From an uncultured Actinomycetota bacterium (GTDB lineage: Bacteria; Actinomycetota; Actinomycetes; JAFAQI01): 64,000 bases of DNA. The stretch spans positions 656,672 to 720,671 of the forward strand of contig CAVYQE010000002.1 of the NCBI GenBank assembly GCA_963770565.1, read 5' to 3'. Positions 8,188 to 26,718 of this stretch are shown here, piece by piece. The stretch's first letter is position 1, and each line of letters begins with the position of its first letter. A program made the translations under genes and the position numbers. A model generated the notes under the pieces. The model searched no databases and was not told the origin of the DNA. It was given only the letters and a program-made list of their open reading frames with translations.

Positions 8188-8272
8188 CCAAGCAATGTCA
8201 CATTGCCCCGGGAAACCCGGGGGCAATGTGACACCACCCCCTCAAAGTGCAGGGCAATGTCACATTGCTTGG
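8188..8272. repeat. Family-1 composite palindromic element, copy A
   Basis: CCAAGCAATGTCACATTGCCCCGGGAAACCCGGGGGCAATGTGACACCACCCCCTCAAAGTGCAGGGCAATGTCACATTGCTTGG. Three GCAATGTSACATTGC-like cores; the outer two form a 22-bp terminal inverted repeat. Sits between the convergent 3' ends of ppc and the 8276..9505 gene. Same element at 28291 and 34916. Confidence 0.8.
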
Positions 8273-8275
8273 CTG

Positions 8276-9505
8276 CTAGCAGGCGGGGACGCGGGGCAGG
8301 GCGTCGGGCCGGCGCAGGGTGGCAACGCCATACCGCACCAGCGGGGCCGAGACCTTGTGCCACGAGCTACCGCCGAGGTTTTCGGCGAGCGGCACAAAGG
8401 GGGTCGGGTGCGCCACACCGCACTCACCGTTGCGCGACCACTGACCCACGGCCGCGCCGCCAGCACTCGACACGCTGATCGCGTTCAGCTGCGAGTCATG
8501 GCCCGGCGAGGCCGCGTGCCCGTTTCGCCACTTTCCGCCGCTGTAGACCAGGACGTACGCCGAGCTCACGGTGCCCGTCTTCGCGCTGCTAGTGCCGGCG
8601 AGGTAGGCATGAGAGCCGGATGCCGACAGGGCCGAGGTCTGCGCGTAATAGCCCGGCGAGGCGACCTTGACCCGTGACCACTTCTTGCCGTTCCAGTGCT
8701 CGGTGAACGGCTGGGGGTGCAGGGTCGTCGTGCCCACCGAGATCGATCCGGCCACCCAGGTGTTCTTCGAGGAGGTGGTCGCGATCCGGTTGACCGACGC
8801 GCCGGACGGCAGCGTGAGCTGCATCACCTTGAACTTGTGACCGTTCCAGAACGTGACCACAACGCCCTTGACGTCAGTGCCGAGGATCCACACGTTCTTC
8901 GCGCTCGAGGTGCTGACCGCGCTGTCGTTGAACCCGGTCTGCTTGGTGTCCTTCAGCACAGCCCACTTGTGACCGTTCCAGTGCGCGATCAACGGGGTCG
9001 ACGTTGGCAGCCCGTCACCGACCGCCCAGGCATTCGACGCCGACGAGGCCGACACCGAGAGGAACTGGCCCTGCCCGATCGAGGTCTTCTCCGGCTTGAA
9101 GCCGCCGCCCGTGGAGTGCTCGATCAGGGTCGTGTCCGATGTACCGCCGAAGACGTCGCCGACGATCCAGGCCGAATGCGGCGATCCGGCCGCGACGTCG
9201 AACAGCTGGTCGCTCGTGACAGGGCTCGGCAGCTTCACGGTCACCTTCGACCAGTGCGAGCCGGATCGGCGCAGCGCGTACGGCGTCGACCCCGCGTTGG
9301 TCGACTGCATGCCAAGGGCGAACGCAGTGGTGGAGTGCGGCGCGACCGACACCGCGCTCAGCGATGCGGTCGTTATCTTGGCATTCGAGTGGGCCGCCGG
9401 GTGGCGGGTGGCACCGGACGCCGCGGAGCCGCTAGCGACCGCAGCCACGACGAGGCCTGACGCGATCGAAACGAGGGCAGCCCGACGGGCCAGCGAAGTC
9501 AGCAT
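8276..9505 (-). CDS. Secreted repeat protein (beta-propeller-like)
   Basis: Signal peptide MLTSLARRAALVSIASGLVVAAVASGSAAS. Roughly 45-50 aa periodic repeats with HWNGHKW / FWNGHKF / EHWNGKKW / NAWAVGD / NVWILGTD / NTWVAGS signatures. Family assignment uncertain. Confidence 0.55.
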   Translation of the reverse strand: MLTSLARRAALVSIASGLVVAAVASGSAASGATRHPAAHSNAKITTASLSAVSVAPHSTTAFALGMQSTNAGSTPYALRRSGSHWSKVTVKLPSPVTSDQLFDVAAGSPHSAWIVGDVFGGTSDTTLIEHSTGGGFKPEKTSIGQGQFLSVSASSASNAWAVGDGLPTSTPLIAHWNGHKWAVLKDTKQTGFNDSAVSTSSAKNVWILGTDVKGVVVTFWNGHKFKVMQLTLPSGASVNRIATTSSKNTWVAGSISVGTTTLHPQPFTEHWNGKKWSRVKVASPGYYAQTSALSASGSHAYLAGTSSAKTGTVSSAYVLVYSGGKWRNGHAASPGHDSQLNAISVSSAGGAAVGQWSRNGECGVAHPTPFVPLAENLGGSSWHKVSAPLVRYGVATLRRPDALPRVPAC

Positions 9506-9612
9506 GCGGAGGACCCTAGTGCAACGCTTAGCGGCCCTGCAGGCGATCCGCCAGACCAGCCCGAATCACCACTCCGCACCGACCTCATGCAGCGTGAAAC
9601 GTGCCGCGTGGG

Positions 9613-9635
9613 CCAAGCAATGTCACATTGCTTGG
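9613..9635. repeat. Solo 23-bp perfect palindrome of family 1 (CCAAGCAATGTCACATTGCTTGG)
   Basis: Equals the left and right terminal inverted repeats of the 85-bp family-1 element fused without the internal part. Lies 110 bp upstream of the start of gene 8276..9505 and 21 bp from the island attR-like repeat. Confidence 0.8.
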
Positions 9636-9653: not shown

Positions 9654-9712
9654 GCCGAGGCTCCGGGATTTGAACCCGGGATGGGCGCGAACCCAAACCG
9701 CATTAGCAGTGC
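9654..9712 (-). repeat. Duplicated 3' portion of tRNA-Ser(GCU) (attR-like partial tRNA)
   Basis: 9657..9712 is identical over 56 bp to 26632..26687 (59 bp with one mismatch if extended to 9654/26629). The copy covers the anticodon stem through the T-arm and acceptor 3' strand of the tRNA at 26630..26718, in the same orientation. Confidence 0.85.
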
Positions 9713-10528
9713 TCCGTGAAGCTGTCCGTAGGTGGCCGCCGATGACCACCGATGACCGGCCTGGAAAGCGTTGATGCAGGTCAGGGCCTTGCGCCGGCCC
9801 GCGACGCACTTTGGCGGACAATCGCGGACGCCGCAACGTTGTGCGAGAACTGCAACTGAAACTGCAACTGGTGGCAACCGAGACAGTGACCCAGGCGACG
9901 ACGCCGGATGTGCGTCTGACAGCCCTCTCGTGGGTGAGGATCGAACCCATCGAGCAGGCCCAGGCTAAAGAGTGCCCGTGAACCCGCGCGGGCAGGCTCC
10001 TGACCTGCAACTTCACCGCAGAAGGCAGGATTTGAGCGTGGCTTCCTTACCGACCTGAACCGTGGCGAACATTTCCTGGCAGACGCTGATGCCCTGTGCA
10101 TCGAAATCACAATGGAGGTGCGGCGGCTCAGAACGGCACGCCCGCTCGGTGCGCGGTACGTACGCCGGAGGCTGCGGCGGCCAGCCATCGCTGGACGCCG
10201 CGGCGGAGTCCACGAACCCAGAACATGCCCCCGGGCGCTGGTGGGGCGCTCATGCGAGAGACGAGGTCGAGCATCAGAGGCGGCCTTTGTCGAAGCGGTC
10301 GGGGTCCGATGTGCCGGCCGCCTCGCTGACTCAGCGAGGGACCGCGACAGCCCAACAGTGCGAGTCGTTGACCGCGAGGAGCTCGACTCCGAGCAGGCTT
10401 GAACGCCAGACGGCGCTGCTTCCGCTCCCGCTCCGAGGCCGATGCATCCATCAAGTCCAGCAGATGCCGGTCAGATCAGCAACCGGTTGGGACGCCCGCA
10501 GCCGCGTCCTAACCCGCCCGGTCTCGCC

Positions 10529-12736
10529 TTAGTGCGAGAACCGCACCGTCGGCAGCGCGCGGCGTAGCCACCGCGGGCTGTACCAGGCGTTGTGACCTGT
10601 CAGGCGAAGGATCACAGGCAGGATGATCAACCGGATCGACAACGCGTCAAGGAAGACTGCCACCGCCAGGATGACGCCCATCTCCTTGGGTGCGAGCGGG
10701 CCGGACAGCGCGAATGTGAGAAAGACCGCAACCATGACGCCGGCAGCCGCGACGACTACCCGCCCCGAGGTCCGCAACGCGGTGCGCATCGCGTCGTACG
10801 GGTCGCCGGTCGCGTCGTAGTGCTCACGCGCGGCGGACAGCAAGAACAGCGTGTAGTCCATCGCGACGCCCGAGAGCATCGCTCCGAAGAACAGCGGTGC
10901 CCAGGCGTCCACAAACCCCTGCGGCTGGAAGTGAAGCAGCCCGGACAGGTGGCCGTCCTGGAAGATCAGCCGGGCGACACCGAACGCGGCTGCGATCGAG
11001 GCGAGGTTGGTGATCACACCGGCAAACGCGACAAGCGGGCTACCGAGCGCGACGAGCAGTAGCAGGAACCCGAGCAAGATCAGCAGACCGAAAACCAACG
11101 GCGTGCGTGCGCTGAGGACCTTCTGCAGGTCGTGGTTCTCGGCAGCAGCACCGCCGATCAGCGTGCCGGCCGGGAGCTCGGTACGGATCCGGTCGATGGT
11201 CGCTCCGGTCGTCGCGCTGGAAGCGTCTGTGGTTGGGACCGCAAGAAGCATCTCGTACCCGTGACTGGTGCCGCCTGGCATCACAGCAGCGATGCCTCGA
11301 TCGGCGCGAAGCGCACTGGTTGCCTCGCCGACCGACGAGCTCGGCGCCACGATTTGCAGGGTGCCCGGTGCGCCAGGACCGAACGCGCTCACGACCTGTT
11401 CATAGCCGGCGCGTGCCGACTGGTCCGCGGGCACGATCGCGATACTCGGCATCCCGGTGCGCAGGCCCAGCACGGGCCAGGCGAGCATCGCGAGAAGTGC
11501 GACCACAAACGACGCGGCCAGCCAGGGACGGCGGTGCAGCAGACCGCCCCACCGATGGAGCAGATTCTCCAGGCCGCGCGGGAGATGCGGCTCGTGGAAG
11601 TGTCGCCGTTCGAACGCCTTGATCTGCCTTCGCGCCTCGCCGAACGGGAGTGCTCCATTGTTGATCCGCGGGCCGAGTCGGCCGAGCACGGCGGGCAGCA
11701 GCGTCAGCGTCGCGGCAAGTACGGCGACAACGGCGAGCATGATCCCGAGCGCCATACTGCGGAACGCCGGGCTGGGCACGATCAGCACGGTCGACAGCGA
11801 CACGAGGACGGTCAGGCCGCTGAACGCGACCGCCTTGCCAGCGGTTGCCATCGTCTCGCCGACGGCACCAATCGCGTCGTCGCCACCACGGCGGGCCATC
11901 GCGTGACGAAACCGTACGACGATGAACAAGGCGTAGTCGATGCCGAGCGCAAGTGCAAACATCATGGCGAAGTTCAAGGCCCAGATGCTGATCGGTGCCA
12001 CCCTGGTCGCCACTACGAGAGCTCCCGCGGCGCTCAACAGCCCGACGAGGGTCAACATCAGTGGCAGGCCTGCTGCAACGAGGCTGCCGAAGGCAAGCAC
12101 GAGGACGGCCAGCGTGACCGGCCAGGAAAGGATCTCTGAGCGAATCATCGCCGAGTGATTCACCTTGTTGAAGTCCGACCACAACGCGCTGTCACCGGTG
12201 AGCTCCACTGACACCGACGAACTCGACAGCTTCGACAGGGGACCGGTCAGCGCGTCTGCGGCGCGAACCATGTCATTGGCGCCGGCTGCGGCACCGGCTT
12301 GGATCACCCCGGTCCGGCCATCACGTGAGAGGCTTACACCCGCAGTCGGACCGACCACTGTGCTCACTCGAGGGTCGGCGCGCAAGAGTTTCTCGACGCG
12401 GCTCACTGCCGCTTGAGCGGCCGGGTCCGTCGCGATTGGCCGGGTCGAGTCATGAACGACAACCTGCAGTGCAGTGGCGCTCAAACCGGCGAAGTCGCGG
12501 GCGATCACCGCACGAGCCTGGACCGACTGGCTCCCGTTCGCCTGCCACCCGGCTCCCGCTAAGGACGAGTCCACCTTAGGCGCGAACGCGCCGAAGCCAA
12601 CAAGAACGACCAACCAGCCGAGGAGCACGATCCGGAAGTGAGTGGCAGCCCACACGCCCAGCCGGGCCAGCCACGCCGGGCTCGGTGTCGCTGCGGGGCT
12701 CGGCGGGGTCGTCGCGCGCGGGGCGACGGTTGTCAT
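10529..12736 (-). CDS. MMPL-family (RND superfamily) membrane transporter
   Basis: 735 aa. N-terminal TM followed by a large periplasmic loop, twice-repeated six-TM bundles, typical MmpL architecture. Last gene of the cstB-like/cstR-like operon; AAGGAG RBS at 12741-12746. Confidence 0.85.
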   Translation of the reverse strand: MTTVAPRATTPPSPAATPSPAWLARLGVWAATHFRIVLLGWLVVLVGFGAFAPKVDSSLAGAGWQANGSQSVQARAVIARDFAGLSATALQVVVHDSTRPIATDPAAQAAVSRVEKLLRADPRVSTVVGPTAGVSLSRDGRTGVIQAGAAAGANDMVRAADALTGPLSKLSSSSVSVELTGDSALWSDFNKVNHSAMIRSEILSWPVTLAVLVLAFGSLVAAGLPLMLTLVGLLSAAGALVVATRVAPISIWALNFAMMFALALGIDYALFIVVRFRHAMARRGGDDAIGAVGETMATAGKAVAFSGLTVLVSLSTVLIVPSPAFRSMALGIMLAVVAVLAATLTLLPAVLGRLGPRINNGALPFGEARRQIKAFERRHFHEPHLPRGLENLLHRWGGLLHRRPWLAASFVVALLAMLAWPVLGLRTGMPSIAIVPADQSARAGYEQVVSAFGPGAPGTLQIVAPSSSVGEATSALRADRGIAAVMPGGTSHGYEMLLAVPTTDASSATTGATIDRIRTELPAGTLIGGAAAENHDLQKVLSARTPLVFGLLILLGFLLLLVALGSPLVAFAGVITNLASIAAAFGVARLIFQDGHLSGLLHFQPQGFVDAWAPLFFGAMLSGVAMDYTLFLLSAAREHYDATGDPYDAMRTALRTSGRVVVAAAGVMVAVFLTFALSGPLAPKEMGVILAVAVFLDALSIRLIILPVILRLTGHNAWYSPRWLRRALPTVRFSH

Positions 12737-12803
12737 GGTTCTCCTTACATTGCCCGGTAGGGTATCTGTGATCCACTAACGATCAGCTGCGTATTGAGTC
12801 CGA

Positions 12804-13079
12804 TCAGGCCAAGCTGAGAAAGAGCTTCTCCATCTGGTCCGGGCTCAACGGCTCAACCTCACCCGCGGCGGCCGCCGACATGCACTGCCGCATCCCAGAG
12901 GCGAGCAACTTGTAGCCGGCGCGGTCGAACGCCTTGCTCACCGCGGCCATCTGGGTCACGATGTCGGCGCAGTCCCGGCCGTCCTCGAGCATCCGGATCA
13001 CACCGCCGACCTGTCCCTCGATTCGGCGCAGGCGCTTGACGATCTCGTCGGTCGCGCCGTTGTCGAGCTCCATGTGCAT
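12804..13079 (-). CDS. CsoR/CstR/RcnR-family (DUF156) repressor, CstR-like (two Cys, no metal-ligand His)
   Basis: MHMELDNGATDEIVKRLRRIEGQVGGVIRMLEDGRDCADIVTQMAAVSKAFDRAGYKLLASGMRQCMSAAAAGEVE...: conserved RxxGQxxGxxxM, a first Cys in ...DC.DIV.Q..A and a second Cys 29 residues later; no His four residues before the second Cys. GGAAGGA RBS. The upstream part of the track ORF 12804..13367 is not coding. Confidence 0.85.
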   Translation of the reverse strand: MHMELDNGATDEIVKRLRRIEGQVGGVIRMLEDGRDCADIVTQMAAVSKAFDRAGYKLLASGMRQCMSAAAAGEVEPLSPDQMEKLFLSLA

Positions 13080-13107
13080 TTCCTTCCTCAGCGATGTCGA
13101 TCTGACC

Positions 13108-14484
13108 TCACGTCGCGACCAACTGGCACCACGCCGTGTAGCCACCGAGCAGATCCGAGACGTCACGGGCACCGGCGCGCGCAAGGACGCTCGACGCCAC
13201 GATCGAGCGCCAACCAGTCGCGCAGTACACGAGGATAGGTTTGTCGAGGTCGAGTTCCGCGACCCGGCTCGGCAACTCGGCCAGCGGGATCGCGACGGCG
13301 CCGGAGAGCATGCCAGCGGCACGCTCGGTGGGGTTGCGCAGGTCGACAAGTTGAAGCTCGTCGACATTGTCGATGGCGTTCAGCGCCTCGGCGACGGTCA
13401 ACCGGCTCGAACGCGCAGTCTGTGCCGGGTCGGCACCCAGGAGACCGATCGGGTCGGCGACGTAGCCAATGACGTTGTCGTATCCGATCCGGGCGAGCCG
13501 CATCGCGTCACGTTGCTCCGCGCCGGTGGGACTGAGCAAGATCACCCTCGTTTCGGGTGGGAGCACGGACCCCACCGTCTCCGCGAGCCTGCCCTCGCCG
13601 CTCACGTTGACGGATCCGCTGAGATGCCCGGCGGCGTACTCCCCCGGCTCGCGGGTATCGAGCACGACGGCACCGGTCACCCGTTCTGCCTCGACGGTGG
13701 CCAGGTCCAGCGCCGGAACGGTCCGTGCGCCGTCTAGGCGTTCGTGATCCTGCCGGTTGAGCAGGGCGTTGAAGCCGAAATAGCCGGGTGCCGCCGGTTG
13801 GTCGGCGGTGACGATCGCGACGAACTGGTCCTCGGCCATCGGCCGGCATGCGTAGTTGAGAACTCGCTGCTCACCGATGGTCGACTGGCGCTCGGTCGAG
13901 AGGTTCTTGCCGCAGGCTGAGCCCGCACCGTGGGCAGGGAAAACGCGCACGGAATCGGGCAGACCCATGAGCTTGACCTGCACCGACTGGTACAGCCGGC
14001 GGGCGAGCTCGTCGGCGGTCACTCCCACCGAGGCCAGCAAGTCGGGTCTTCCGACATCGCCGATGAACAGCGCGTCGCCGGTGAGGACGCCCCACGGCAC
14101 CTCGTCAACAGCATGTTCGTAGACCAGCACGCTGATTGATTCCGGGGTGTGGCCTGGAGTCGCCATGATCTCGAGCGTCACGTCGCCGAGGTCGATCCGC
14201 TCACCATCGCGAAGGGCGCGGAACGCGAAGTCCGGCGCCGCCTCCTGACCGAAGCCGATCCAGGCACCCGTCGCAGCGGCGAGCTCCAAGTGCCCCGCGA
14301 CGAAGTCGGCGTGGAAATGGGTGTCGATCACCCCGACGATGGTCAGCCCCGCGCTGGCCGCCTCGGCGAGGTAGTCCTCGACGTCCCGACGCGGGTCGAC
14401 GACGACGGCGTGACGAGACGCCTCGTCAGCGATGAGGTACGACGCCTGCGACAGGCACTCGATGTAGTGCTGCGTAAAGATCAC
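13108..14484 (-). CDS. CstB-like persulfide dioxygenase (MBL fold) fused to two rhodanese domains
   Basis: The N-terminus VIFTQHYIECLSQASYLIADE... aligns with the CstB/ETHE1 start. Metal motif THFHADFVAGH. C-terminal rhodanese with active Cys (VYCATGWRS) preceded by an inactive rhodanese-like domain. GTG start at 14484 with GGAGG 5 nt upstream; the alternative is a leaderless ATG at 14505. Confidence 0.85.
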   Translation of the reverse strand: MIFTQHYIECLSQASYLIADEASRHAVVVDPRRDVEDYLAEAASAGLTIVGVIDTHFHADFVAGHLELAAATGAWIGFGQEAAPDFAFRALRDGERIDLGDVTLEIMATPGHTPESISVLVYEHAVDEVPWGVLTGDALFIGDVGRPDLLASVGVTADELARRLYQSVQVKLMGLPDSVRVFPAHGAGSACGKNLSTERQSTIGEQRVLNYACRPMAEDQFVAIVTADQPAAPGYFGFNALLNRQDHERLDGARTVPALDLATVEAERVTGAVVLDTREPGEYAAGHLSGSVNVSGEGRLAETVGSVLPPETRVILLSPTGAEQRDAMRLARIGYDNVIGYVADPIGLLGADPAQTARSSRLTVAEALNAIDNVDELQLVDLRNPTERAAGMLSGAVAIPLAELPSRVAELDLDKPILVYCATGWRSIVASSVLARAGARDVSDLLGGYTAWCQLVAT

Positions 14485-14503
14485 TTCTGCCTCCGCTGCT
14501 ACC

Positions 14504-14520
14504 ATACCCCGTGAGGTATA
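14504..14520. promoter_or_regulatory. CsoR/CstR-type operator op1 (ATACCCCGTGAGGTATA), 20 bp upstream of the cstB-like start
   Basis: TACCC-N4-AGGTA palindrome (right half-site 4/5). Same family as op2-op6. Overlaps the alternative ATG at 14505. Confidence 0.7.
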
Positions 14521-14745
14521 TGTTGTCGACTCGAAGGAGCTTCTTGTGTGCATGCCCACTACGTGCCGTGATTGCGGCAAGACGACCTGGCGCGGCTGTG
14601 GCCAGCACGTCGACGCCGTCATGGCCGGTGTGCAAACGTCCCAACGCTGCACTTGCCCCCGGTCGACCCGCTCATCGCGGTCAGTGCTGACCCGACTGAT
14701 CGGTCGGACCTCCGCGTAGGCGATGGCGGGCCTCGACGGAGTGTG

Positions 14746-15912
14746 CTACTCGAGCTTGAGCAACGCCATCAGCCGTTCGGCAACCTGACCGCCCGCGTCG
14801 ATCGCGACGTCAACCGCATCGCTCACCCGCAGGTCGTCACGCAGCAACGAGCGGACCTCCGCCATTGTCGTGTCAGCGGCCGCGTTGGGGCGGCCGGCGG
14901 CGGACCGCAGCGCCTCGAGACGATCTGCGGCGCGCACCAGGCACGACCGGTCGTACTGCCAACTCTCAGACCACGGGCGGTCAAGCAACATGGTGCGAAT
15001 GACGCCAGCCGAGTGATCCGCGAGCAGGTCGCGCACTAGCACAAGGTTTCCCACGGACTTCGCCATCTTCACGCCGTCGACATTTACCACTCCGACGCGA
15101 AACCATCGGCGCGCGTAGGGTCGCACTCCGGTCAACGCCTCACCGATCGCCGCCTCGAATGCGTGATGGGGGTAGCGCAGGTCGGCACCGCCGGCGTGGA
15201 TGTCGACGCCCAGCCCGAACGTGCTGAGCACCATCGCAGTGCACCCGGCGTGCCAGCCTGGACGGCCCGGACCCCATGGGCTGTCCCATCGCTGGTCGGC
15301 CCCGGTCGAGGCCTGCCACAAAGCAGCGTCCAGCGGCTGCCGCTTCGCCGGGTCGGCCAGGTTGCCGCCGTACTCCGCGGCGAGCGCGAGCGCATCGGCC
15401 TCGGATAGACCTTCGGACTCGGCGATTCCCGTACCGGGCAGGTAGACGCTGCCCTCGCTGACGTAGGCGGCTCCACTCTCAACGAGGGCCGCCGCGAGCG
15501 CCACCACCTGGCTGATGTGGTGACGAGCGCGAGGCTCGTGATGCGGCCGGGAGACCCGCAGCGCTGCCATGTCAGCATCGAAGTGGTACTGCTGCAGGTA
15601 GGCGAAGGTGTCGTTCGGGGTGCCCGCACGGTCGGCCGCAGCGCTGAGCACGTCGTCGATGTCGGTGACGTTCCGGCAGACGATCGGGGTGGTGCGACTG
15701 TCGGCGAGCACGGCCGTGAGGACGTCGACCCAGACGTACGTCGCGGCGTGACCCAGATGCGTGACGTCGTAGGGGGTGATCCCGCAGACGTAGAGGCGCG
15801 CCCGGTCGATCATGGGCAGCGGCGATCCGGCGATCGACATCGGTTCTGGCGGGGCGGCGGTCGGGTAGACGATCTGCACGCCCCCATGATCCTCCGCGCC
15901 GCGGCGGCTCAT
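14746..15912 (-). CDS. MshC-like cysteine ligase (class I aminoacyl-tRNA-synthetase-like, CysRS paralogue lacking an anticodon-binding domain)
   Basis: HIGH-type motif CGITPYDVTHLGHAATYV and KMSKS-type motif KMAKSVGN. 388 aa. Strong local similarity to my recollection of mycobacterial MshC (FGPGRPGWH..., DMAALRV...). Start overlaps the Nudix stop (ATGA coupling). Confidence 0.75.
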   Translation of the reverse strand: MSRRGAEDHGGVQIVYPTAAPPEPMSIAGSPLPMIDRARLYVCGITPYDVTHLGHAATYVWVDVLTAVLADSRTTPIVCRNVTDIDDVLSAAADRAGTPNDTFAYLQQYHFDADMAALRVSRPHHEPRARHHISQVVALAAALVESGAAYVSEGSVYLPGTGIAESEGLSEADALALAAEYGGNLADPAKRQPLDAALWQASTGADQRWDSPWGPGRPGWHAGCTAMVLSTFGLGVDIHAGGADLRYPHHAFEAAIGEALTGVRPYARRWFRVGVVNVDGVKMAKSVGNLVLVRDLLADHSAGVIRTMLLDRPWSESWQYDRSCLVRAADRLEALRSAAGRPNAAADTTMAEVRSLLRDDLRVSDAVDVAIDAGGQVAERLMALLKLE

Positions 15913-16364
15913 CGACCGGTCGACGTACTTGGTACGGCAGTGAGGAGGAACTCGCGCTGCTCATCGTGCATCAGTGGCGGGAGCTCGCGGAACCAGCCGT
16001 AGGCCCGGGCCGCGTCATCCAGCTCGATCGTCCCGGTCCATTCGGTGACCTTGAAAGCGATGCCCACCGGGCTGTCCAGGTTGTTGTTGTAGTGGCTGGG
16101 GTACTCGATGTACCCGAGGAGCTCGGCGCGATCCACCGATATCCCGAGTTCCCCCCTCGCGACCCGGGCGACCGCGTCGGTCAGCGGCTCTCCGAATCGG
16201 ACCGTGCCGCCCGGCAGGTGCCACAAGCCTCGGCAGGGCTCGGCATCGCGTCTGGTGAGGAGAACCCCGCGCTCGGAGACCAGCACGACTTCCACAGTCA
16301 GCCGGGGAACCTTGCGGTAAATCGTCCAGAACTCCCGCTCGGACAGCGGGTGGTCCACGTCCAT
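15909..16364 (-). CDS. NUDIX hydrolase
   Basis: Nudix box GLWHLPGGTVRFGEPLTDAVARVARGELG. About 151 aa from the ATG at 16364; the longer track ORF would place the operator inside the coding sequence. First gene of a two-gene operon with the MshC-like ligase. Confidence 0.7.
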   Translation of the reverse strand: MDVDHPLSEREFWTIYRKVPRLTVEVVLVSERGVLLTRRDAEPCRGLWHLPGGTVRFGEPLTDAVARVARGELGISVDRAELLGYIEYPSHYNNNLDSPVGIAFKVTEWTGTIELDDAARAYGWFRELPPLMHDEQREFLLTAVPSTSTGR

Positions 16365-16415: not shown

Positions 16416-16431
16416 ATACCCACAGGGGTAT
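16416..16431. promoter_or_regulatory. CsoR/CstR-type operator op2 (ATACCCACAGGGGTAT) in the divergent nudix / sqr intergenic region
   Basis: Perfect TACCC-N4-GGGTA palindrome. 52 bp upstream of Nudix ATG 16364 and 74 bp upstream of SQR ATG 16505. Confidence 0.8.
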
Positions 16432-16504: not shown

Positions 16505-17965
16505 ATGGCTCGTGTCGTTGTCCTCGGCGCTGGGATCTCCGGCCACACCGCCGCACTCCACCTTCGCCGGCTCCTCGCTCGGCGCCACGAGGTCGTCGTC
16601 GTCTCACCGAATGCCGACTACAACTGGATCCCTTCAAACATCTGGGTCGGCGTCGGACGGATGGATGTTGACCAGGTCACCTTCCCGCTTGCGCCCGTGT
16701 ACCGGAGAAAAGGTATCGACTTTCGGCAAGCCCGGGCGGTCGAGCTCTGGCCAGAAGGCGACGACTCGAACGCCCAAGGTGCGGTCGAGATCGAGTACAC
16801 CCTTCCCCATCGGTCCGGCGAGCATGAACGACTCGCCTACGACTTCCTGATCAACGCGACCGGCCCCAAGCTGAACTTTGCGGCGACGCCGGGCCTCGGC
16901 CCGGAAGGAGGACACTCCCTGTCCGTTTGTACGGCACAGCATGCATCGGCCACCGCGGCCAAGTTCGCCGAGGTCATCGCGGCGCTTGAACGCGGCGAGA
17001 CCCGGCGCCTCGTGATCGGGGTAGGCCACGGCACGTGCACGTGCGAGGGCGCCGCTTTCGAGTACGCCTTCAACGTCGAGCACGAGCTACGGTCCCGCGG
17101 CCTCCGCGAGCGCGCCGAGGTGACCTACCTCACCAACGAGCACGAACTCGGTGACTTCGGCGTCGGCGGCATGACGTTCGCGCAGCACGGCTTTCTCACG
17201 ACCAGTCAACTGTGGACGGAGTCGCTGTTCATGGAGCGCGACGTCAAGGCGGTCGTCGGCGCACATGTGCAGCGGGTCGAGCCGGGCAAGTTGTTCTACG
17301 AAACCCTCGACGGCGAGGAGGGCGCGCTGGAGTTCGACTTCGCGATGCTGCTGCCGCCCTTCCGCGGCCAGGATCTCAAGGCGTACGACCACAGGGGCGC
17401 CGACATCACGAGCGAGATGTTTGCCCCGAACGGTTTCCTGAAAGTCGACGCTGACTACAGCCCAAAGCCGTACAACGAGTGGAAGGCGGCAGACTGGCCG
17501 AGGACGTACGTGACTCCGAAGTACCCGAACGTGTTCGGTGTGGGGATCGCATTTGCCCCACCGCACCCGATTTCGAAGCCACGAACCTCACCCGGCGGCA
17601 CCGTGATCTCGCCGGCTCCGCCCCGCACCGGAATGCCGTCAGGGCTGATGGGACGTCAGGTGGCACGCAGCATCGCGGACATGATCAACACCGGCGCGAC
17701 GACGCCCACCCACACTGCGTCGATGGCGGACATGGGTGCGGCCTGTGTGGCATCGGCCGGCGCTGGCTTTCGCAAGGGCACGGCGGCCTCCATGACGATG
17801 TACCCAGTCGTCCCGGACACCGACCGGTTCCCCGGCTACGGCCGCAGCCTCACCGATACGACCGGCGAGCTCGGACTAGCCGGGCACTGGATCAAGCACA
17901 TGCTGCACGTGATGTTCATCTACAAGGCCAAGGGCCGTCCAGGCTGGTCCCTGATCCCGGAGTGA
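16505..17965 (+). CDS. sqr: Sulfide:quinone oxidoreductase (FAD-dependent pyridine nucleotide-disulfide oxidoreductase family)
   Basis: N-terminal Rossmann VVVLGAGISGHTAA; conserved SQR Cys region GTCTCEGAAFEYA; 486 aa. AAGGAG RBS. Confidence 0.85.
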   Translation: MARVVVLGAGISGHTAALHLRRLLARRHEVVVVSPNADYNWIPSNIWVGVGRMDVDQVTFPLAPVYRRKGIDFRQARAVELWPEGDDSNAQGAVEIEYTLPHRSGEHERLAYDFLINATGPKLNFAATPGLGPEGGHSLSVCTAQHASATAAKFAEVIAALERGETRRLVIGVGHGTCTCEGAAFEYAFNVEHELRSRGLRERAEVTYLTNEHELGDFGVGGMTFAQHGFLTTSQLWTESLFMERDVKAVVGAHVQRVEPGKLFYETLDGEEGALEFDFAMLLPPFRGQDLKAYDHRGADITSEMFAPNGFLKVDADYSPKPYNEWKAADWPRTYVTPKYPNVFGVGIAFAPPHPISKPRTSPGGTVISPAPPRTGMPSGLMGRQVARSIADMINTGATTPTHTASMADMGAACVASAGAGFRKGTAASMTMYPVVPDTDRFPGYGRSLTDTTGELGLAGHWIKHMLHVMFIYKAKGRPGWSLIPE

Positions 17966-17973
17966 GGAGCCCG

Positions 17974-18192
17974 ATGACCGAGAACAATGCCGCGGCCTCG
18001 TCCGCGCAGCCCACAGCGGGCGGGTCCGCGACGGATCACGTGCGCGCGGTCGGCGAGGTCGCTGACTCCCTGGCGCCGATGCCGACCAGACGGACGATTC
18101 GGATCCGAACGTTCCTGCCCTATCAGGCGTACCGCTTCGGTGTCATCAACCTCAAGATGCTCAAGGTGACCCGTCGCTCCCAGTCAAGGTGA
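17974..18192 (+). CDS. Small hypothetical protein translationally coupled to sqr
   Basis: 72 aa. GAGGAG lies 5 nt upstream of the ATG at 17974, 8 nt after the sqr stop. No recognisable domain. Confidence 0.4.
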   Translation: MTENNAAASSAQPTAGGSATDHVRAVGEVADSLAPMPTRRTIRIRTFLPYQAYRFGVINLKMLKVTRRSQSR

Positions 18193-18270: not shown

Positions 18271-19104
18271 ATGAGGCAGGAGTCACACCCACCGGGCCTG
18301 GCCCGAATCGACCGAACCGGGTCGGTGTCGCTGTGGGCGCAGGTCCGCGCTGATCTGGAGCGACGGCTCGCGGTCGATGAGTTCGACGGTGACTTCCCCG
18401 GCGAACTGGAGCTGACCGCGCAATACGCGGTCAGCCGGCACACCATTCGGGAGGCGTTGCGTCACCTGCGCGCGGAAGGCCTCGTCATCAGTGAGCGCGG
18501 ACGCCGCTCTCGCCTCGCCGACCACGCTGAAATCGAGCAACCGCTCGGCGCGCTCTACAGCCTGTTCGCCTCGGTCGAGGCCGCCGGTCTGGAGCAGCGC
18601 AGCGTCGTCCGCGCCCTTGATCTCCGCGCCGACGGAGTCATCGCGCCGCGACTCGACGTCGAGGAGTCCACCCCACTGCTCTATCTGGAACGGCTCCGTC
18701 TGGCCGGCGAGAAGCCGTTCGCGATGGACCGCGTCTGGCTCCCCGCGTCAGTCGCCGAACCGCTGCTCGACGCGGACTTCACCCACACTGCCCTGTACGA
18801 CGAACTCGCCGCGCGCTGCGGATTCCGCCTGACCGGCGGCCGGGAACACATCCGCGCGGTCCTTCCGACCACGGCCGAACGCAGACTGCTCGAACTCGAC
18901 GACACCACCGCACTGTTCGCGATCGAACGCCTTGGTGAACGGGCCGGCCAGCCAATGGAGTGGCGCCACACCCTGGTCCGTGGCGACCGATTCGCCCTCA
19001 CTGCCGACTTCACCGCCCACACCGGCTACCGGCTCGAGCTGTCCGGCCCCGAACGACAGGCTTCCAACCTCGCGACCGCATCGCAAGGACACGCCCATGG
19101 CTGA
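18271..19104 (+). CDS. GntR-family regulator with UTRA effector domain (HutC/FarR subfamily)
   Basis: N-terminal GntR HTH (...ELELTAQYAVSRHTIREALRHLRAEGLVISERGRRSRLA), C-terminal UTRA-like domain. 277 aa. Embedded in the sqr-rhodanese-tauE gene string. Confidence 0.8.
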   Translation: MRQESHPPGLARIDRTGSVSLWAQVRADLERRLAVDEFDGDFPGELELTAQYAVSRHTIREALRHLRAEGLVISERGRRSRLADHAEIEQPLGALYSLFASVEAAGLEQRSVVRALDLRADGVIAPRLDVEESTPLLYLERLRLAGEKPFAMDRVWLPASVAEPLLDADFTHTALYDELAARCGFRLTGGREHIRAVLPTTAERRLLELDDTTALFAIERLGERAGQPMEWRHTLVRGDRFALTADFTAHTGYRLELSGPERQASNLATASQGHAHG

Positions 19105-19450
19105 CCCCTTCGATCCGCAGACTCGGGTCGACGAAGTCAGCCCGGCCGCAGCGCGGGACCTCGCCGATGCCGGTGCCGTGCTCGTCGATGTCCGTGAGCC
19201 GGACGAATGGGCCGCGGGCCACATCGCCGACGCACAGCACATCCCGCTCGGCGACCTCGACCCTGACCTGTTCGTCGGCGGCCCGCTCGTAGTCGCTGTG
19301 TGCCGCTCGGGGCACCGCTCCGGCACCGCGGCGCTGCGATTGCACGACGCGGGAGTCGACGTCCGCAACATGACGGGCGGAATGAAGGCCTGGCAGGCCG
19401 ACGGCCTGCCCGTCACCCGCGACGACGGCACCACCGGCTCAGTCGCGTGA
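19097..19450 (+). CDS. Single-domain rhodanese sulfurtransferase
   Basis: 117 aa with active-site loop CRSGHRS. Overlaps the gntR stop by 8 nt and the tauE start by 4 nt. Confidence 0.8.
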   Translation: MADPFDPQTRVDEVSPAAARDLADAGAVLVDVREPDEWAAGHIADAQHIPLGDLDPDLFVGGPLVVAVCRSGHRSGTAALRLHDAGVDVRNMTGGMKAWQADGLPVTRDDGTTGSVA

Positions 19451-20370
19451 CGCTCGCCTTGGCACTTCTCCTCGGTGCCGTCATCGGGCTCAGCCTGGGG
19501 GCCCTTGGTGGTGGCGGTTCGATCCTCACCGTCCCGGCGCTCGTGTATGCGCTCGGCGAGAAGGCGTCGGCAGCCACGACCGGCAGCCTGATCATTGTCG
19601 GGATCACCGCGCTCGTTGGTTCCTTCGGCCACGCACGAGCGGGCCGGGTGCGCTGGCGCGCCGGGTTCGGTTTCGGTCTCGCCGGGGTCGCCTCGAGCTC
19701 CCTCGGGACAGCGCTCAACCGTCATATCAACCCGGATGTGCTGCTGCTCGCCTTCGCCGGCCTGGTGGTGATCGCAGCGTCAGGTATGTGGCGTCATGCC
19801 GGGGCTGCCATCGCGGTATCTGGTGATCAGCTCGAGCTTCGCGTCGCCGAGCCTGCTTTGGCGGTGGACGGCTCAAACGCTTCGAGGAGCGCAGCGGTCG
19901 AACTACCCGGCGACCGAGGCATCCGTCCCACACCGGCCAGCCAGCCGGAGGGATCGATCGACTTCCCCGGTGGCTCAACCACCCACGATTCCCTGAGAAC
20001 CGTCCTCAAGGTGGTCGCCGCCGGTCTTATCGTCGGCTTTCTCACCGGGTTCTTCGGTGTTGGCGGCGGCTTCGTCATCGTGCCCGCCCTGGCCCTCGTA
20101 CTCGCCTACCCGATGCCTGAGGCGATCGGAACGTCCCTGCTGATCATCGCCATCAACTCAGCAGCCGCCCTCGGCGAACGAGCCGGCCAACATCAGACAG
20201 TTCATTGGCACGTGATCGCGCCGTTTACGGTCGCGGCTGTTGCCGCCAGCCTCGCCGGCAAGCAGGTCGCCGACCGAGTCGACGGACCAAGGCTGACGCG
20301 CGCCTTCGTCATTCTTCTGATCGCGGTCGCGATCTACACCGCGGTCCGCAGCATCGTCGGCCTCAGCTGA
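19447..20370 (+). CDS. TauE/SafE (DUF81) sulfite/sulfur-compound exporter family membrane protein
   Basis: Duplicated 4-TM halves, each with a glycine-rich motif: LGALGGGGSILTVPAL and FFGVGGGFVIVPAL. GTG start overlapping the rhodanese stop. Confidence 0.8.
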   Translation: MTLALALLLGAVIGLSLGALGGGGSILTVPALVYALGEKASAATTGSLIIVGITALVGSFGHARAGRVRWRAGFGFGLAGVASSSLGTALNRHINPDVLLLAFAGLVVIAASGMWRHAGAAIAVSGDQLELRVAEPALAVDGSNASRSAAVELPGDRGIRPTPASQPEGSIDFPGGSTTHDSLRTVLKVVAAGLIVGFLTGFFGVGGGFVIVPALALVLAYPMPEAIGTSLLIIAINSAAALGERAGQHQTVHWHVIAPFTVAAVAASLAGKQVADRVDGPRLTRAFVILLIAVAIYTAVRSIVGLS

Positions 20371-20495: not shown

Positions 20496-20513
20496 TATAC
20501 CCCTAGGGGTATA
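20496..20513. promoter_or_regulatory. CsoR/CstR-type operator op3 (TATACCCCTAGGGGTATA)
   Basis: Perfect 18-bp palindrome of the form TACCC-N4-GGGTA. 17 bp upstream of the GGAGGAG RBS and ATG 20530 of the DUF2892-like gene. Confidence 0.85.
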
Positions 20514-20529: not shown

Positions 20530-20739
20530 ATGGAACTCGTACGCTTTATGCAGACTTCGATAGGAAGAAGCCTTCGGGCCGTGCTCGGGGTGGTCCTGAT
20601 CGCCGTCGGTGTCGTCCTTGGTGGTGCCTGGCTAGCGCTGGCTGGTATCGGTCTCGTTCCCCTTATCGTCGGATCGGCGGGTCTTTGCCTCATCGCCCCT
20701 CTACTCCACGCTCCGATCCGTGGAGCTCAGAGATCATGA
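20530..20739 (+). CDS. Small two-TM membrane protein, DUF2892/YgaP-C-terminal-like
   Basis: 69 aa: MELVRFMQTSIGRSLRAVLGVVLIAVGVVLGGAWLALAGIGLVPLIVGSAGLCLIAPLL; two hydrophobic helices and a Cys near the second. Strong RBS. This family commonly partners rhodaneses. Confidence 0.45.
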   Translation: MELVRFMQTSIGRSLRAVLGVVLIAVGVVLGGAWLALAGIGLVPLIVGSAGLCLIAPLLHAPIRGAQRS

Positions 20740-20794: not shown

Positions 20795-21400
20795 GTGACC
20801 ACGCTGGACCGGCAAGGGTGGGATGAGCGGTACCGGGACACCGAGCTGGTGTGGGGCTCTGGCCCCAACCGATTTCTCGTGGACCATGTGACGAACCTGA
20901 CGCCAGGGACTGCGCTGGACGTGGCGTGCGGTGAGGGTCGCAACGCCATCTGGCTTGCGCATCAGGGATGGCGGGTGGTCGGGGTCGACTTCTCGTCCGT
21001 TGGTCTTGACAAGGCGCGAGGGCTGGCAGCGGAGACTGGTGTCACGGCGGAGTGGGTGCAGGGTGACCTCACCACATGGGAGCCACCGAAAAGCTATGAC
21101 CTCGTCGTTGTCATGTACCTGCATTTGCCAGGCGCTGTGCGTCACAGTGTCTTTGCGCGGATGGCAAAGTCGGTGGCACCGGGCGGGACCATGCTCGTGG
21201 TAGGTCATGACATGTTGAACCTCACCGAGGGAACCGGCGGTCCACAGAATGCTGCCGTTCTCTACGGGCCTGAGGACGTTGTCGGCGATATCGGCTCGGT
21301 ACTTGCGATCGAGAGAGCGGAGCGTGTTCACCGGCCGGTCTCCGGTTCGGAGGGCGAGGCGATGGCCATCGACGTCCTGGTTCGCGCTCACCGATCCTGA
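20795..21400 (+). CDS. Class I SAM-dependent methyltransferase (TehB/thiopurine-methyltransferase-like)
   Basis: Motif I LDVACGEGRNAIWLA, motif post-I VVGVDFS. 201 aa. Downstream of op3 in the same orientation. Confidence 0.8.
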   Translation: MTTLDRQGWDERYRDTELVWGSGPNRFLVDHVTNLTPGTALDVACGEGRNAIWLAHQGWRVVGVDFSSVGLDKARGLAAETGVTAEWVQGDLTTWEPPKSYDLVVVMYLHLPGAVRHSVFARMAKSVAPGGTMLVVGHDMLNLTEGTGGPQNAAVLYGPEDVVGDIGSVLAIERAERVHRPVSGSEGEAMAIDVLVRAHRS

Positions 21401-22492: not shown

Positions 22493-22509
22493 TGGCGCCC
22501 TTCCCTGGG

Positions 22510-22525
22510 TACCCCCTGGGGTATA
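22510..22525. promoter_or_regulatory. CsoR/CstR-type operator op4 (TACCCCCTGGGGTATA) upstream of trx-lmbE
   Basis: TACCC-N4-GGGTA palindrome 18 bp upstream of the trx GTG. Confidence 0.8.
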
Positions 22526-24185: not shown

Positions 24186-24202
24186 ATACCCATGGGGGTA
24201 TA
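24186..24202. promoter_or_regulatory. CsoR/CstR-type operator op6 (ATACCCATGGGGGTATA) upstream of the peroxiredoxin
   Basis: TACCC-N4-GGGTA palindrome about 100 bp upstream of prx ATG 24084. Confidence 0.7.
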
Positions 24203-26235: not shown

Positions 26236-26629
26236 GCGAGTCGCGTCGGAATGTCGCGGCCGTCAGCGTAGGTGGCCGGCACGGGCAGCTCGACGGTCAC
26301 GTTGGCGACGCTCTATGACTACGAGGCGCGGCCGGTCGGACGCACCATTGCGCCGGTGGGTCATCTCATTGCCCGGCCGAGGTTGAGCAGAACCGGCAAA
26401 TTGTCGGTCGACGTCTGCTGCCGGGCGCCTCGCCATGCGGTCGCTGCCGTCGCTTGCCCGGTCTAATAGCGTATAGAGGCGGGGCCGATTCATCGAGTGC
26501 CCGGATCGCTCACGAAACCTCGGATGCCGGTTCCGGATCGGTCCGGGCCGATCAGGTGAAGATGATCTGGCCGCCGGCGGCCTGCAAGCGAGTTACATCA
26601 GTGTGTTCAGCGAAAGCGCAGGTCAGCAG

Positions 26630-26718
26630 CGGAGGCTCCGGGATTTGAACCCGGGATGGGCGCGAACCCAAACCGCATTAGCAGTGCGGCGCCATAGACC
26701 GGACTAGGCGAAGCCTCC
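26630..26718 (-). tRNA. tRNA-Ser (anticodon GCU), type II with long variable arm
   Basis: Reverse complement GGAGGCTTCGCCTAGTCCGGTCTATGGCGCCGCACTGCTAATGCGGTTTGGGTTCGCGCCCATCCCGGGTTCAAATCCCGGAGCCTCCG. Anticodon loop CTGCTAA, long variable arm, T-arm CCGGGTTCAAATCCCGG. Its 3' 56 nt are duplicated at 9657..9712. Confidence 0.9.

Follow-up and report, generated by a model that had tools for sequence, protein, structure and literature searches.

The DNA analysed here, called the window, is a stretch of 64,000 nucleotides (nt) from an uncultured Actinomycetota bacterium. Its minus strand carries three co-directional genes between 14484 and 10529, which encode, in order, a persulfide dioxygenase (PDO)-rhodanese fusion, a CsoR-family repressor and an MMPL-family transporter; the genes are referred to below as pdo, cstR and mmpL. 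The new element is the transporter. Gene neighbourhoods and operator positions in related genomes suggest that an MMPL exporter is a recurrent, conserved and directly operator-controlled member of CstR-type regulons across Actinomycetota.

Organisation of the operon

A preliminary description of this DNA was made from the letters alone. All the features that it named are present at the positions it gave, and the parts of the operon are as follows.

13108..14484, minus strand: CstB-like (type III) persulfide dioxygenase, GTG start, 458 aa (Pfam, full-length structure alignment and independent gene call)
12804..13079, minus strand: CstR-like two-Cys CsoR-family repressor, 91 aa (ATG 13079) or more likely 89 aa (ATG 13073) (PF02583)
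10529..12736, minus strand: MMPL-family transporter (RND, MmpL3-like core), 735 aa, with an AAGGAG ribosome-binding site (PF03176)
14501..14529, minus strand: predicted sigma-70-like promoter, -35 TCGACA, 17-nt spacer, -10 TATGGT (consensus match)
14504..14519, no strand assigned: op1, CsoR/CstR-type operator ATACCCCGTGAGGTAT, of the form ATACC-N6-GGTAT (motif search)
12750..12765, no strand assigned: degenerate operator ATACCCTACCGGGCAA (minus-strand reading), with 2 mismatches, in the 67-nt cstR-mmpL spacer and 13 nt upstream of the MMPL ATG

Independent gene calls exist for a public assembly that contains the same DNA (L081). They give a PDO of 458 aa, i.e. starting at GTG 14484, a repressor of 89 aa, for which the second ATG (13073) is used, and an MMPL gene that follows after 67 nt. 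A database protein of 89 aa (P0001) is 100% identical to the window repressor. The window MMPL has no exact match in the assembly index.

The window is high-GC DNA (GC about 0.63-0.73), and the closest relatives of its proteins are found in Jatrophihabitans, Frankiales and Mycobacteriales soil metagenome-assembled genomes (MAGs). An Rfam scan returned three tRNAs only, with no riboswitch or small RNA in the operon. The window contains a single CsoR-family gene, and none of DUF302, OsmC, DsrE2, DsrC or ArsR type.

The MMPL transporter and its association with cstR

The third gene was described beforehand as MMPL-type, and this is borne out by a Pfam PF03176 (MMPL) match in two stretches (3.8e-63) and by an alignment of residues 32-727 with MmpL3 (8qkk, 7e-48), covering the core of 12 transmembrane (TM) helices. 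The proton-relay Asp-Tyr pairs are kept, as IDY in TM4 and MDY in TM10. The protein ends right after TM12, without a C-terminal cytoplasmic domain, and its score against the MmpL3 equivalog model is 184.8 bits, compared with a cut-off of 1400.

An orthologue scan, using one genome per species, identified 80 MMPL loci with 55-75% identity to the window protein. The hosts comprise Jatrophihabitans, Frankiaceae and Mycobacteriales MAGs, Flexivirga, Luteipulveratus, Actinacidiphila, Acidimicrobiales, Solirubrobacterales and Gaiellales. The closest loci, with at least 69% identity, number 29, and in 20 of them a CsoR-family gene is found within 800 bp of mmpL. In these close loci cstR either diverges from mmpL or, as in the window, precedes it on the same strand; in Actinacidiphila it is found just downstream. 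A PDO near mmpL is rare, with no more than a handful of cases among the 80 loci. A conserved pdo-mmpL unit was considered and rejected, since PDO is rarely near and the common neighbours are cstR and its operators. The pair conserved across related loci is thus cstR-mmpL and not pdo-mmpL.

Among the 24 usable loci with an MMPL at least 69% identical (group A), 21 of the 34 perfect operators lie no more than 250 bp upstream of mmpL, compared with 0.64 expected if operators were placed uniformly. In the 52 loci with an MMPL 55-60% identical (group B), the corresponding figures are 14 of 20 and 0.39, giving 35 of 54 for the two groups together, with approximately 1 expected. These upstream operators often come in tandem, two sites being separated by 22-55 bp, reminiscent of the pair of sites in the ScPDO promoter. 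Where cstR comes before mmpL on the same strand, the strong operator sits upstream of cstR and a weakened copy is left in the spacer between the two genes.

The window has the same arrangement, with the degenerate site at 12750 in the spacer. Taken alone this site is not significant, as the window contains 10 sites with up to 2 mismatches compared with 4.95 expected. Homologous sites are found before MMPL orthologues in loci L079 (ATACCCTACCGGGTAT, a perfect operator), L068 (ATACCCTACCGGGCAT) and L011 (ATACCCTACCCGGTAC, 17 bp upstream of mmpL), and it is only through this positional homology that the window's site appears credible.

The association was also examined from the side of the repressor, in a sample of seven relatives with 66-80% identity. 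Three of the seven have mmpL directly downstream of cstR, twice as cstR-mmpL-DUF302 and once as cstR-mmpL-rhd-tauE-pdoRhd. The arrangements in the other four are SQR-DsrC-DsrE2-cstR, cstR-Trx-OsmC, cstR-DUF302, and OsmC divergent from a cstR that precedes a ModE-like gene and a three-gene ABC transporter. Around mmpL itself, the recurrent neighbours are DUF302, YgaP-like TM protein, sulfide:quinone oxidoreductase (SQR), thioredoxin (Trx), OsmC, DsrE2, DsrC-like, rhodanese, TauE and PDO. SQR-like proteins, which fall in one blastp cluster, are present in 32 of the 80 loci; in about 11 of these the match is 61-75% identical to the window SQR, and in ten it extends over the full 486 aa.

DUF302 is directly downstream of mmpL in 13 of 30 close-group loci and within three genes in 16 of the 30, as judged from a crude map of open reading frames (ORFs). 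The cassette mmpL-DUF302, often followed by the YgaP-like TM gene, recurs in L006, L008, L009, L021, L024, L083 and L085. DUF302 may be an accessory partner of this MMPL clade; the window is without it.

In the Solirubrobacterales and Gaiellales of the Thermoleophilia (L030-L074), an ArsR-family regulator replaces CstR before mmpL (for example at 1763-2125 of L048 and 5572-5928 of L044). It has an invariant C-x3-C (LCEQVCG) in its last helix and no N-terminal Cys. Its best PDB match is SrnR; BigR and SqrR reach 30-37 bits only, and the comparison with a BigR fragment counts for little. In these lineages the transporter may answer to a second thiol-based sensor, unrelated to CstR.

A search of the accessible literature found no paper linking MMPL with persulfide or CstR. 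PMC6305408 contains both terms, but its mentions are unrelated, and a further paper with both, on a Wbl protein and NO sensing, also appears to be unrelated. The preliminary description had remarked that an MMPL gene is not part of known cst operons. This is correct in so far as MMPL is absent from the cst circuits described; it is not, however, an oddity of one operon, as cstR-mmpL is widely conserved and has operators of its own.

The repressor and its sensing site

The repressor matches Pfam PF02583 (Trns_repr_metal, DUF156) with an E-value of 4.5e-24 and 85 bits, well above the cut-off of 22.8. Together with those for Lactamase_B, Rhodanese and MMPL, this completes the set of family profiles anticipated for the operon, all of which were matched. 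The first Cys is in the sequence GRDCADIVTQ, nearly identical to DRDCADIVTQ in the CstR-type structure 7mq1, and the second is in SGMRQCMSA.

In CsoR the third Cu(I) ligand is a His located four residues before the second Cys. The window repressor has Gly here, on which phmmer and MAFFT agree, so that the x-C-x-C signature without the His ligand, as previously described, is confirmed. Geobacillus CsoR (4m1p) and S. lividans CsoR (4adz) both carry the His, whereas the CstR-type structure 7mq1 has Asn in its place. The MMPL loci encode 37 further CsoR-family proteins with matches of at least 75 residues, and all of these keep both Cys and have Gly or Ser in this position, never His. Proper alignment therefore brought out no Cys-His-Cys triad, either here or in the 37 others.

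None of the curated NCBIfam models is reached. The scores are 55.8 bits for RicR (cut-off 175), 34.2 bits for FrmR (cut-off 133) and 23.1 bits for RcnR (cut-off 138). In a sequence similarity network (SSN) of the family, cluster 3 contains ScCsoR and Rv1766. It comprises 3,175 candidate persulfide sensors from actinomycetes, most of them uncharacterised, that have the x-C-x-C signature (Fakhoury et al. 2021, PMC8643695). The literature search found no functional study of Rv1766. From its motif, operator, taxonomy and neighbourhood, we infer that the window repressor is a CstR-type persulfide sensor of this cluster 3 type.

The PDO-rhodanese protein

The first gene product has Pfam matches to Lactamase_B (9.9e-08) and, in two stretches, to Rhodanese (1.8e-27). 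It aligns end to end with solved proteins that combine metallo-beta-lactamase (MBL) and rhodanese domains, namely 3tp9 (5.6e-85) and 3r2u (6e-58, residues 1-449); the latter we take to be S. aureus CstB. The metal-site motifs THFHADF, TPGHTPES and GDxxFxGDVGRPD are conserved with respect to 3r2u. The PDO domain also contains a Cys in GAGSACGK, which aligns with GAGSPCGK of 3r2u (motif GAGSxCGK); this Cys adjoins the active site and is presumably CstB Cys201. The active-site loop of the middle rhodanese domain, ILLSPTGAEQRD, has no Cys and marks it as a pseudo-rhodanese, while the C-terminal rhodanese has the loop YCATGWRS with its active-site Cys.

The Pfam matches and the alignments with 3r2u and 3tp9 thus uphold the CstB architecture reported for this gene, with an MBL-fold PDO, a Cys-less middle rhodanese and a YCATGWRS rhodanese. 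By its predicted domain content, the protein is a PDO-rhodanese fusion of the CstB, or type III, kind.

Promoter, operator and start codon

A scan for sigma-70-like promoters gave 2 matches in 6.4 kb compared with 0.5 expected, and TCGACA-17-TATGGT is the only one upstream of the operon. On the minus strand op1 reads ATACCTCACGGGGTAT, from 14519 to 14504, and ends 20 nt upstream of GTG 14484. It fills the promoter spacer and overlaps the -10 hexamer, which is a classic occlusion geometry. The motif is the same 16-bp motif that ScCsoR binds in electrophoretic mobility shift assays (PMC7533328).

Two starts had been proposed for the PDO gene: GTG 14484, with op1 20 nt upstream, and a leaderless ATG at 14505. 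The coordinates and the predicted promoter agree with the first, which has GGAGG 5-6 nt upstream. The second lies inside op1, and since it is part of the predicted -10 hexamer TATGGT it cannot serve as a leaderless start. It was rejected also because the N-terminus read from GTG 14484, MIFTQHYIE..., aligns from residue 1 with MFFKQFYDK of CstB, and because the independent gene call uses the GTG. On this evidence GTG 14484 is the predicted start codon of the PDO gene. Transcription from the predicted promoter would begin at about 14495 and give a leader of 10-12 nt.

Further operators and the local regulon

The window contains four perfect ATACC-N6-GGTAT sites (14504, 16416, 20497 and 24186), whereas none occurred in any of 100 dinucleotide-preserving shuffles of the window. 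A further site with 1 mismatch is found at 22509, and all five operators lie within 10 kb. The operators other than op1, and the genes next to them, are listed below.

16416..16431, no strand assigned: second perfect operator, between divergent Nudix (ATG about 16364, minus strand) and SQR (ATG 16505, plus strand) genes
14746..16364, minus strand: Nudix hydrolase (16364-15909) and MshC/CysS-like ligase (15912-14746), with overlapping stop and start codons
16505..20370, plus strand: co-directional string of SQR, 72-aa ORF, GntR/UTRA regulator, rhodanese and TauE sulfite exporter, consisting of the next five features
16505-17965, plus strand: SQR (3hyv match 1e-37, three Cys aligned)
17974-18192, plus strand: 72-aa ORF, no family match
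18271-19104, plus strand: GntR/UTRA regulator
19097-19450, plus strand: free rhodanese
19447-20370, plus strand: TauE sulfite exporter
20497-20512: third perfect operator, upstream of the plus-strand YgaP-like TM / methyltransferase pair
20530-20739 and 20795-21400, plus strand: YgaP-like transmembrane protein, then TPMT/TehB-like methyltransferase
22509-22524: operator with 1 mismatch, 17 nt upstream of the thioredoxin start codon
22492-22124 and 22127-21414, minus strand: thioredoxin, then PIG-L family deacetylase
24186-24201: fourth perfect operator, upstream of the minus-strand peroxiredoxin / methyltransferase unit
about 24084/24120 to 23398 and about 23278 to 22649, minus strand: 1-Cys-type peroxiredoxin, then type-11 methyltransferase

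All five operators directly precede sulfur or thiol-redox genes and none precedes a copper gene, which argues for a sensor of persulfide or other reactive sulfur species (RSS) rather than of copper. It is most likely that the same repressor controls op1 and four more promoters within 10 kb, and the candidate regulon would then most likely contain SQR-rhodanese-TauE, Nudix/MshC-like, YgaP-TM/methyltransferase, thioredoxin/PIG-L and peroxiredoxin/methyltransferase.

Some details of these genes should be added. The window SQR has 486 aa and is about 55 residues longer than the type I enzymes with which it was aligned. From the GntR gene through to TauE, the stop codon of each gene overlaps the start codon of the next. 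The unit thereby includes a second regulator, placed with the 72-aa ORF between SQR and rhodanese-TauE. The Nudix and MshC-like genes are directly upstream of the op1 promoter and on the same strand, and no terminator-like site was found between 14746 and 14529.

The MshC/CysS-like ligase scores 271.5 bits with the MshC model (cut-off 485) and 252 bits with CysS (cut-off 340), and the PIG-L deacetylase is far below the MshB, Mca and BshB cut-offs. The two genes recall the Mca/MshC cycle of mycothiol, though both are far below the equivalog cut-offs. Being behind CstR-type operators, the Nudix, MshC-like and PIG-L genes may form a sulfur-stress-induced pathway for a thiol cofactor or thiol conjugate. 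A PIG-L gene recurs beside peroxiredoxin and thioredoxin in L085, and L075 has an MshC-like gene.

A possible tRNA-bracketed island

On one side of the operon and all the operators is a tRNA gene, and on the other a copy of the 3' part of that gene.

26629..26718, minus strand: intact tRNA-Ser(GCU) gene, the 3' 59 nt of which (26629-26687) are one copy of the repeat
9654..9712, minus strand: 59-nt att-like copy of the 3' part of tRNA-Ser(GCU), 58/59 identical (repeat search and alignment)

The two copies have the same orientation and bracket approximately 17 kb, from mmpL through to the peroxiredoxin operon. GC inside the bracket is about 0.63-0.68, compared with 0.69-0.73 in the flanks. The flanking genes encode PEP carboxylase and a 409-aa protein on the side of the repeat copy, and a SigE-like protein beyond the tRNA gene. 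No integrase-like ORF was found in 9713-10528 or in 24.3-26.6 kb, using Pfam, NCBIfam and a visual check. The former region, about 800 bp from the att-like repeat to the MMPL stop codon, contains no convincing ORF, family match or Rfam hit. Around MMPL in 39 related loci the only tRNA gene is one unrelated tRNA-Val, and the tRNA-Ser bracket is therefore specific to this genome. Scans of metagenome contigs for the empty site and for the exact tRNA-Ser pattern gave no matches at all. It is plausible, from the repeats and the GC content, that the 17-kb stretch is an element integrated at the tRNA gene.

A palindrome of 19-23 nt, CCAAGCAATGTCACATTGCTTGG, occurs close by in three copies (8188-8208, 8250-8273 and 9612-9635). 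The copies flank a gene for a 409-aa protein with no family match (8276-9505), and the third is about 20 nt from the att-like repeat.

Proposed function and alternative explanations

We consider it probable that pdo-rhd / cstR / mmpL is an autoregulated operon for the detoxification of sulfide and persulfide. The reduced, dithiol form of the 89-aa CsoR-family tetramer would bind op1 and occlude RNA polymerase. Sulfane sulfur, as persulfide or polysulfide, would modify or cross-link the two conserved Cys, upon which the repressor would leave the DNA and the operon would be transcribed. The CstB-like enzyme would take the persulfide of a low-molecular-weight thiol, presumably mycothiol, and oxidise it to sulfite or thiosulfate. 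MMPL would be a proton-driven exporter of something made or accumulated under RSS stress, and would remove hydrophobic or amphipathic sulfur species from the membrane or the cytoplasm, in parallel to the PDO route.

To judge from the conserved gene pair and the placement of operators, MMPL is a genuine and evolutionarily conserved target of a CstR-type repressor. Far more tentatively, we suggest that the transporters of this subfamily are induced by RSS and devoted to the export of zero-valent sulfur, polysulfide or thiol-linked polysulfide, an assignment that is possible but rather doubtful. Among the conceivable cargoes these species, and organic polysulfides, are favoured since RND pumps of the MMPL type take hydrophobic or amphipathic substrates and sulfite is covered by TauE. 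The exporter may act with its recurrent partners, DUF302 and the YgaP-like TM protein. Other options for the cargo would be a thiol conjugate of the mercapturic-acid type or an envelope lipid needed under sulfide stress; alternatively, the transporter could have an unrelated passenger function.

Several points weigh against an RSS detoxification operon of this kind. The sequence ATACC-N6-GGTAT is also the operator of copper-sensing CsoR and RicR (PMC7533328), so that a second CsoR-family protein, encoded outside the window, could bind these sites. The site at 12750 has 2 mismatches, and control of MMPL here may thus rest only on co-transcription from op1. The distant MMPL orthologues of Solirubrobacterales and Gaiellales (55-58% identity) are mostly without CstR and operators. 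The peroxiredoxin in the regulon, and OsmC in related loci, also fit a general thiol-oxidant sensor. The substrates known for RND/MMPL transporters are lipids, siderophores and drugs, and we know of no exporter of sulfur species among them.

The shared motif also fits a repressor of the copper-sensing CsoR/RicR type (PMC7533328), in which case the operon, including MMPL, would be a copper-stress response. The best NCBIfam match of the repressor is indeed RicR, its best PDB match by score is Geobacillus CsoR, and an indirect link between MmpL6 and copper has been reported in M. bovis (PMC9048740). But the His that would supply the third Cu(I) ligand is Gly here and Gly or Ser in the 37 other proteins, the RicR score is less than a third of its cut-off, and no gene of CopA, CopZ, multicopper oxidase or metallothionein type is found behind any of the five operators. 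Moreover, the two-Cys actinobacterial homologue that has been characterised answers to polysulfide (PMC7533328). Copper sensing is on these grounds very improbable.

A general sensor of thiol oxidation or electrophiles (peroxide, disulfide stress, quinones, aldehydes), with MMPL exporting oxidised lipids or electrophiles, would account for the 1-Cys peroxiredoxin and thioredoxin in the regulon, for OsmC and AhpD-like CMD proteins in related loci, and for the label 'FrmR family' that the Joint Genome Institute (JGI) gives to such repressors. The neighbourhoods are nevertheless dominated by genes specific to sulfide and sulfane sulfur (SQR, PDO-rhodanese, free rhodanese, TauE, DsrE2 and DsrC). 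The FrmR model gives 34 bits against 133, and the N-terminus is MELD..., whereas the FrmR mechanism needs Pro at position 2. Thioredoxin fits RSS too, as thioredoxin-like proteins are reported to reduce protein persulfides (PMC6196236). We therefore regard such a sensor as unlikely. It could also be argued that MMPL is a passenger, placed beside cstR during assembly of the island and exporting an unrelated envelope lipid or drug: the operator before the window mmpL is degenerate, in about one third of the MMPL orthologue loci no sulfur gene can be recognised among the three genes to each side, and the known MMPL substrates include lipids and siderophores. Against this, the cstR-mmpL pair is kept across rearrangements (divergent, tandem, or with cstR downstream) and spans Jatrophihabitans and Frankia-like MAGs, Dermacoccaceae genera, Actinacidiphila and Acidimicrobiales; perfect operators cluster just before mmpL; and SQR or PDO neighbours recur even where CstR is missing. 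These observations make a passenger quite improbable.

Significance

Disposal of sulfane sulfur is at present pictured as enzymatic oxidation by SQR, PDO and rhodanese, followed by export of sulfite or thiosulfate through TauE-type carriers. If MMPL is a direct target of the persulfide sensor, this would add an unrecognised efflux step. Many genomes carry the MMPL exporter with no adjoining PDO, and efflux would then be a route beside, or instead of, persulfide dioxygenase in Actinomycetota. A sulfur species would be the first such substrate for an RND/MMPL transporter. The link with the persulfide sensor would also open a first way into the physiology of the very many small MMPL transporters found in actinomycetes other than mycobacteria, few of which have a known substrate. 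The cstR-mmpL pair is present in cultured Jatrophihabitans (J. fulvus, J. endophyticus), Flexivirga (F. caeni), Luteipulveratus (L. flavus) and Actinacidiphila (A. rubida), which makes the idea directly testable. In addition, the location of a five-operator regulon between a tRNA gene and its 3' copy suggests that RSS-defence regulons can be mobile as complete units.

Comparison with known systems

The closest precedent is the S. coelicolor circuit. The two-Cys repressor ScCsoR (Cys37 and Cys66) binds ATACCn6GGTAT and is released by polysulfide, for which both Cys are needed (Lu et al. 2020, PMC7533328). It binds in the promoter regions of a PDO-rhodanese/TauE operon, a rhodanese gene and the gene for ScCsoR itself (PMC7533328). 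The window resembles it in having a two-Cys repressor, an operator of identical form that overlaps the promoter, an actinobacterial host, autoregulation, and a PDO-rhodanese fusion, free rhodanese and TauE as predicted targets. ScCsoR and ScPDO having already been characterised with the same operator, the core of sensor and PDO is not new. The S. coelicolor circuit, however, has four genes, with no MMPL, SQR, thioredoxin, peroxiredoxin, PIG-L or MshC-like members. Its pdo promoter has two sites while op1 is single, and in the window, unlike in S. coelicolor, cstR is inside the operon, between pdo and mmpL.

The cst operon of S. aureus comprises CstR together with CstA, CstB, SQR and TauE. The window shares with it the three-domain architecture of CstB and a CsoR-family persulfide sensor with the x-C-x-C signature (PMC8643695, PMC12934615), as well as SQR and TauE in the regulon. 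The sensors differ in that S. aureus CstR belongs to SSN cluster 4 and the actinomycete proteins to cluster 3 (PMC8643695). The window has no multidomain sulfurtransferase of the CstA type, and the cst operon has no MMPL. The thiol in the window's host would be mycothiol, rather than the bacillithiol or CoA of S. aureus.

With the Cu(I)-sensing CsoR and RicR of M. tuberculosis, S. lividans and Geobacillus, the window repressor has in common its fold, a family of tetrameric repressors, the operator consensus and the positions of the two Cys. It differs in the replacement of the His ligand by Gly, in the loss of the Tyr that precedes the first Cys (RDC instead of RYC or VYC), and in the lack of a copper efflux or chaperone gene behind its operators.

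The transporter resembles MmpL3 and the MMPL group of RND transporters, presumably the HAE2 family, in its 12-TM core, two periplasmic loops and Asp-Tyr pairs in TM4 and TM10. Unlike MmpL3 it has only 735 aa, with no C-terminal domain and no MmpS partner seen. It would also be controlled by a CstR-type repressor, and its setting is one of sulfur genes rather than lipid-synthesis genes.

Finally, the SUL module of an Arthrobacter plasmid (PMC6305408) likewise combines a CsoR-family regulator, a sulfur dioxygenase, two rhodaneses, TauE and DUF302 in a mobile actinobacterial cluster. That module is plasmid-borne and its transporter belongs to the MFS (PMC6305408), whereas the cluster described here is tRNA-flanked and its transporter is an MMPL.

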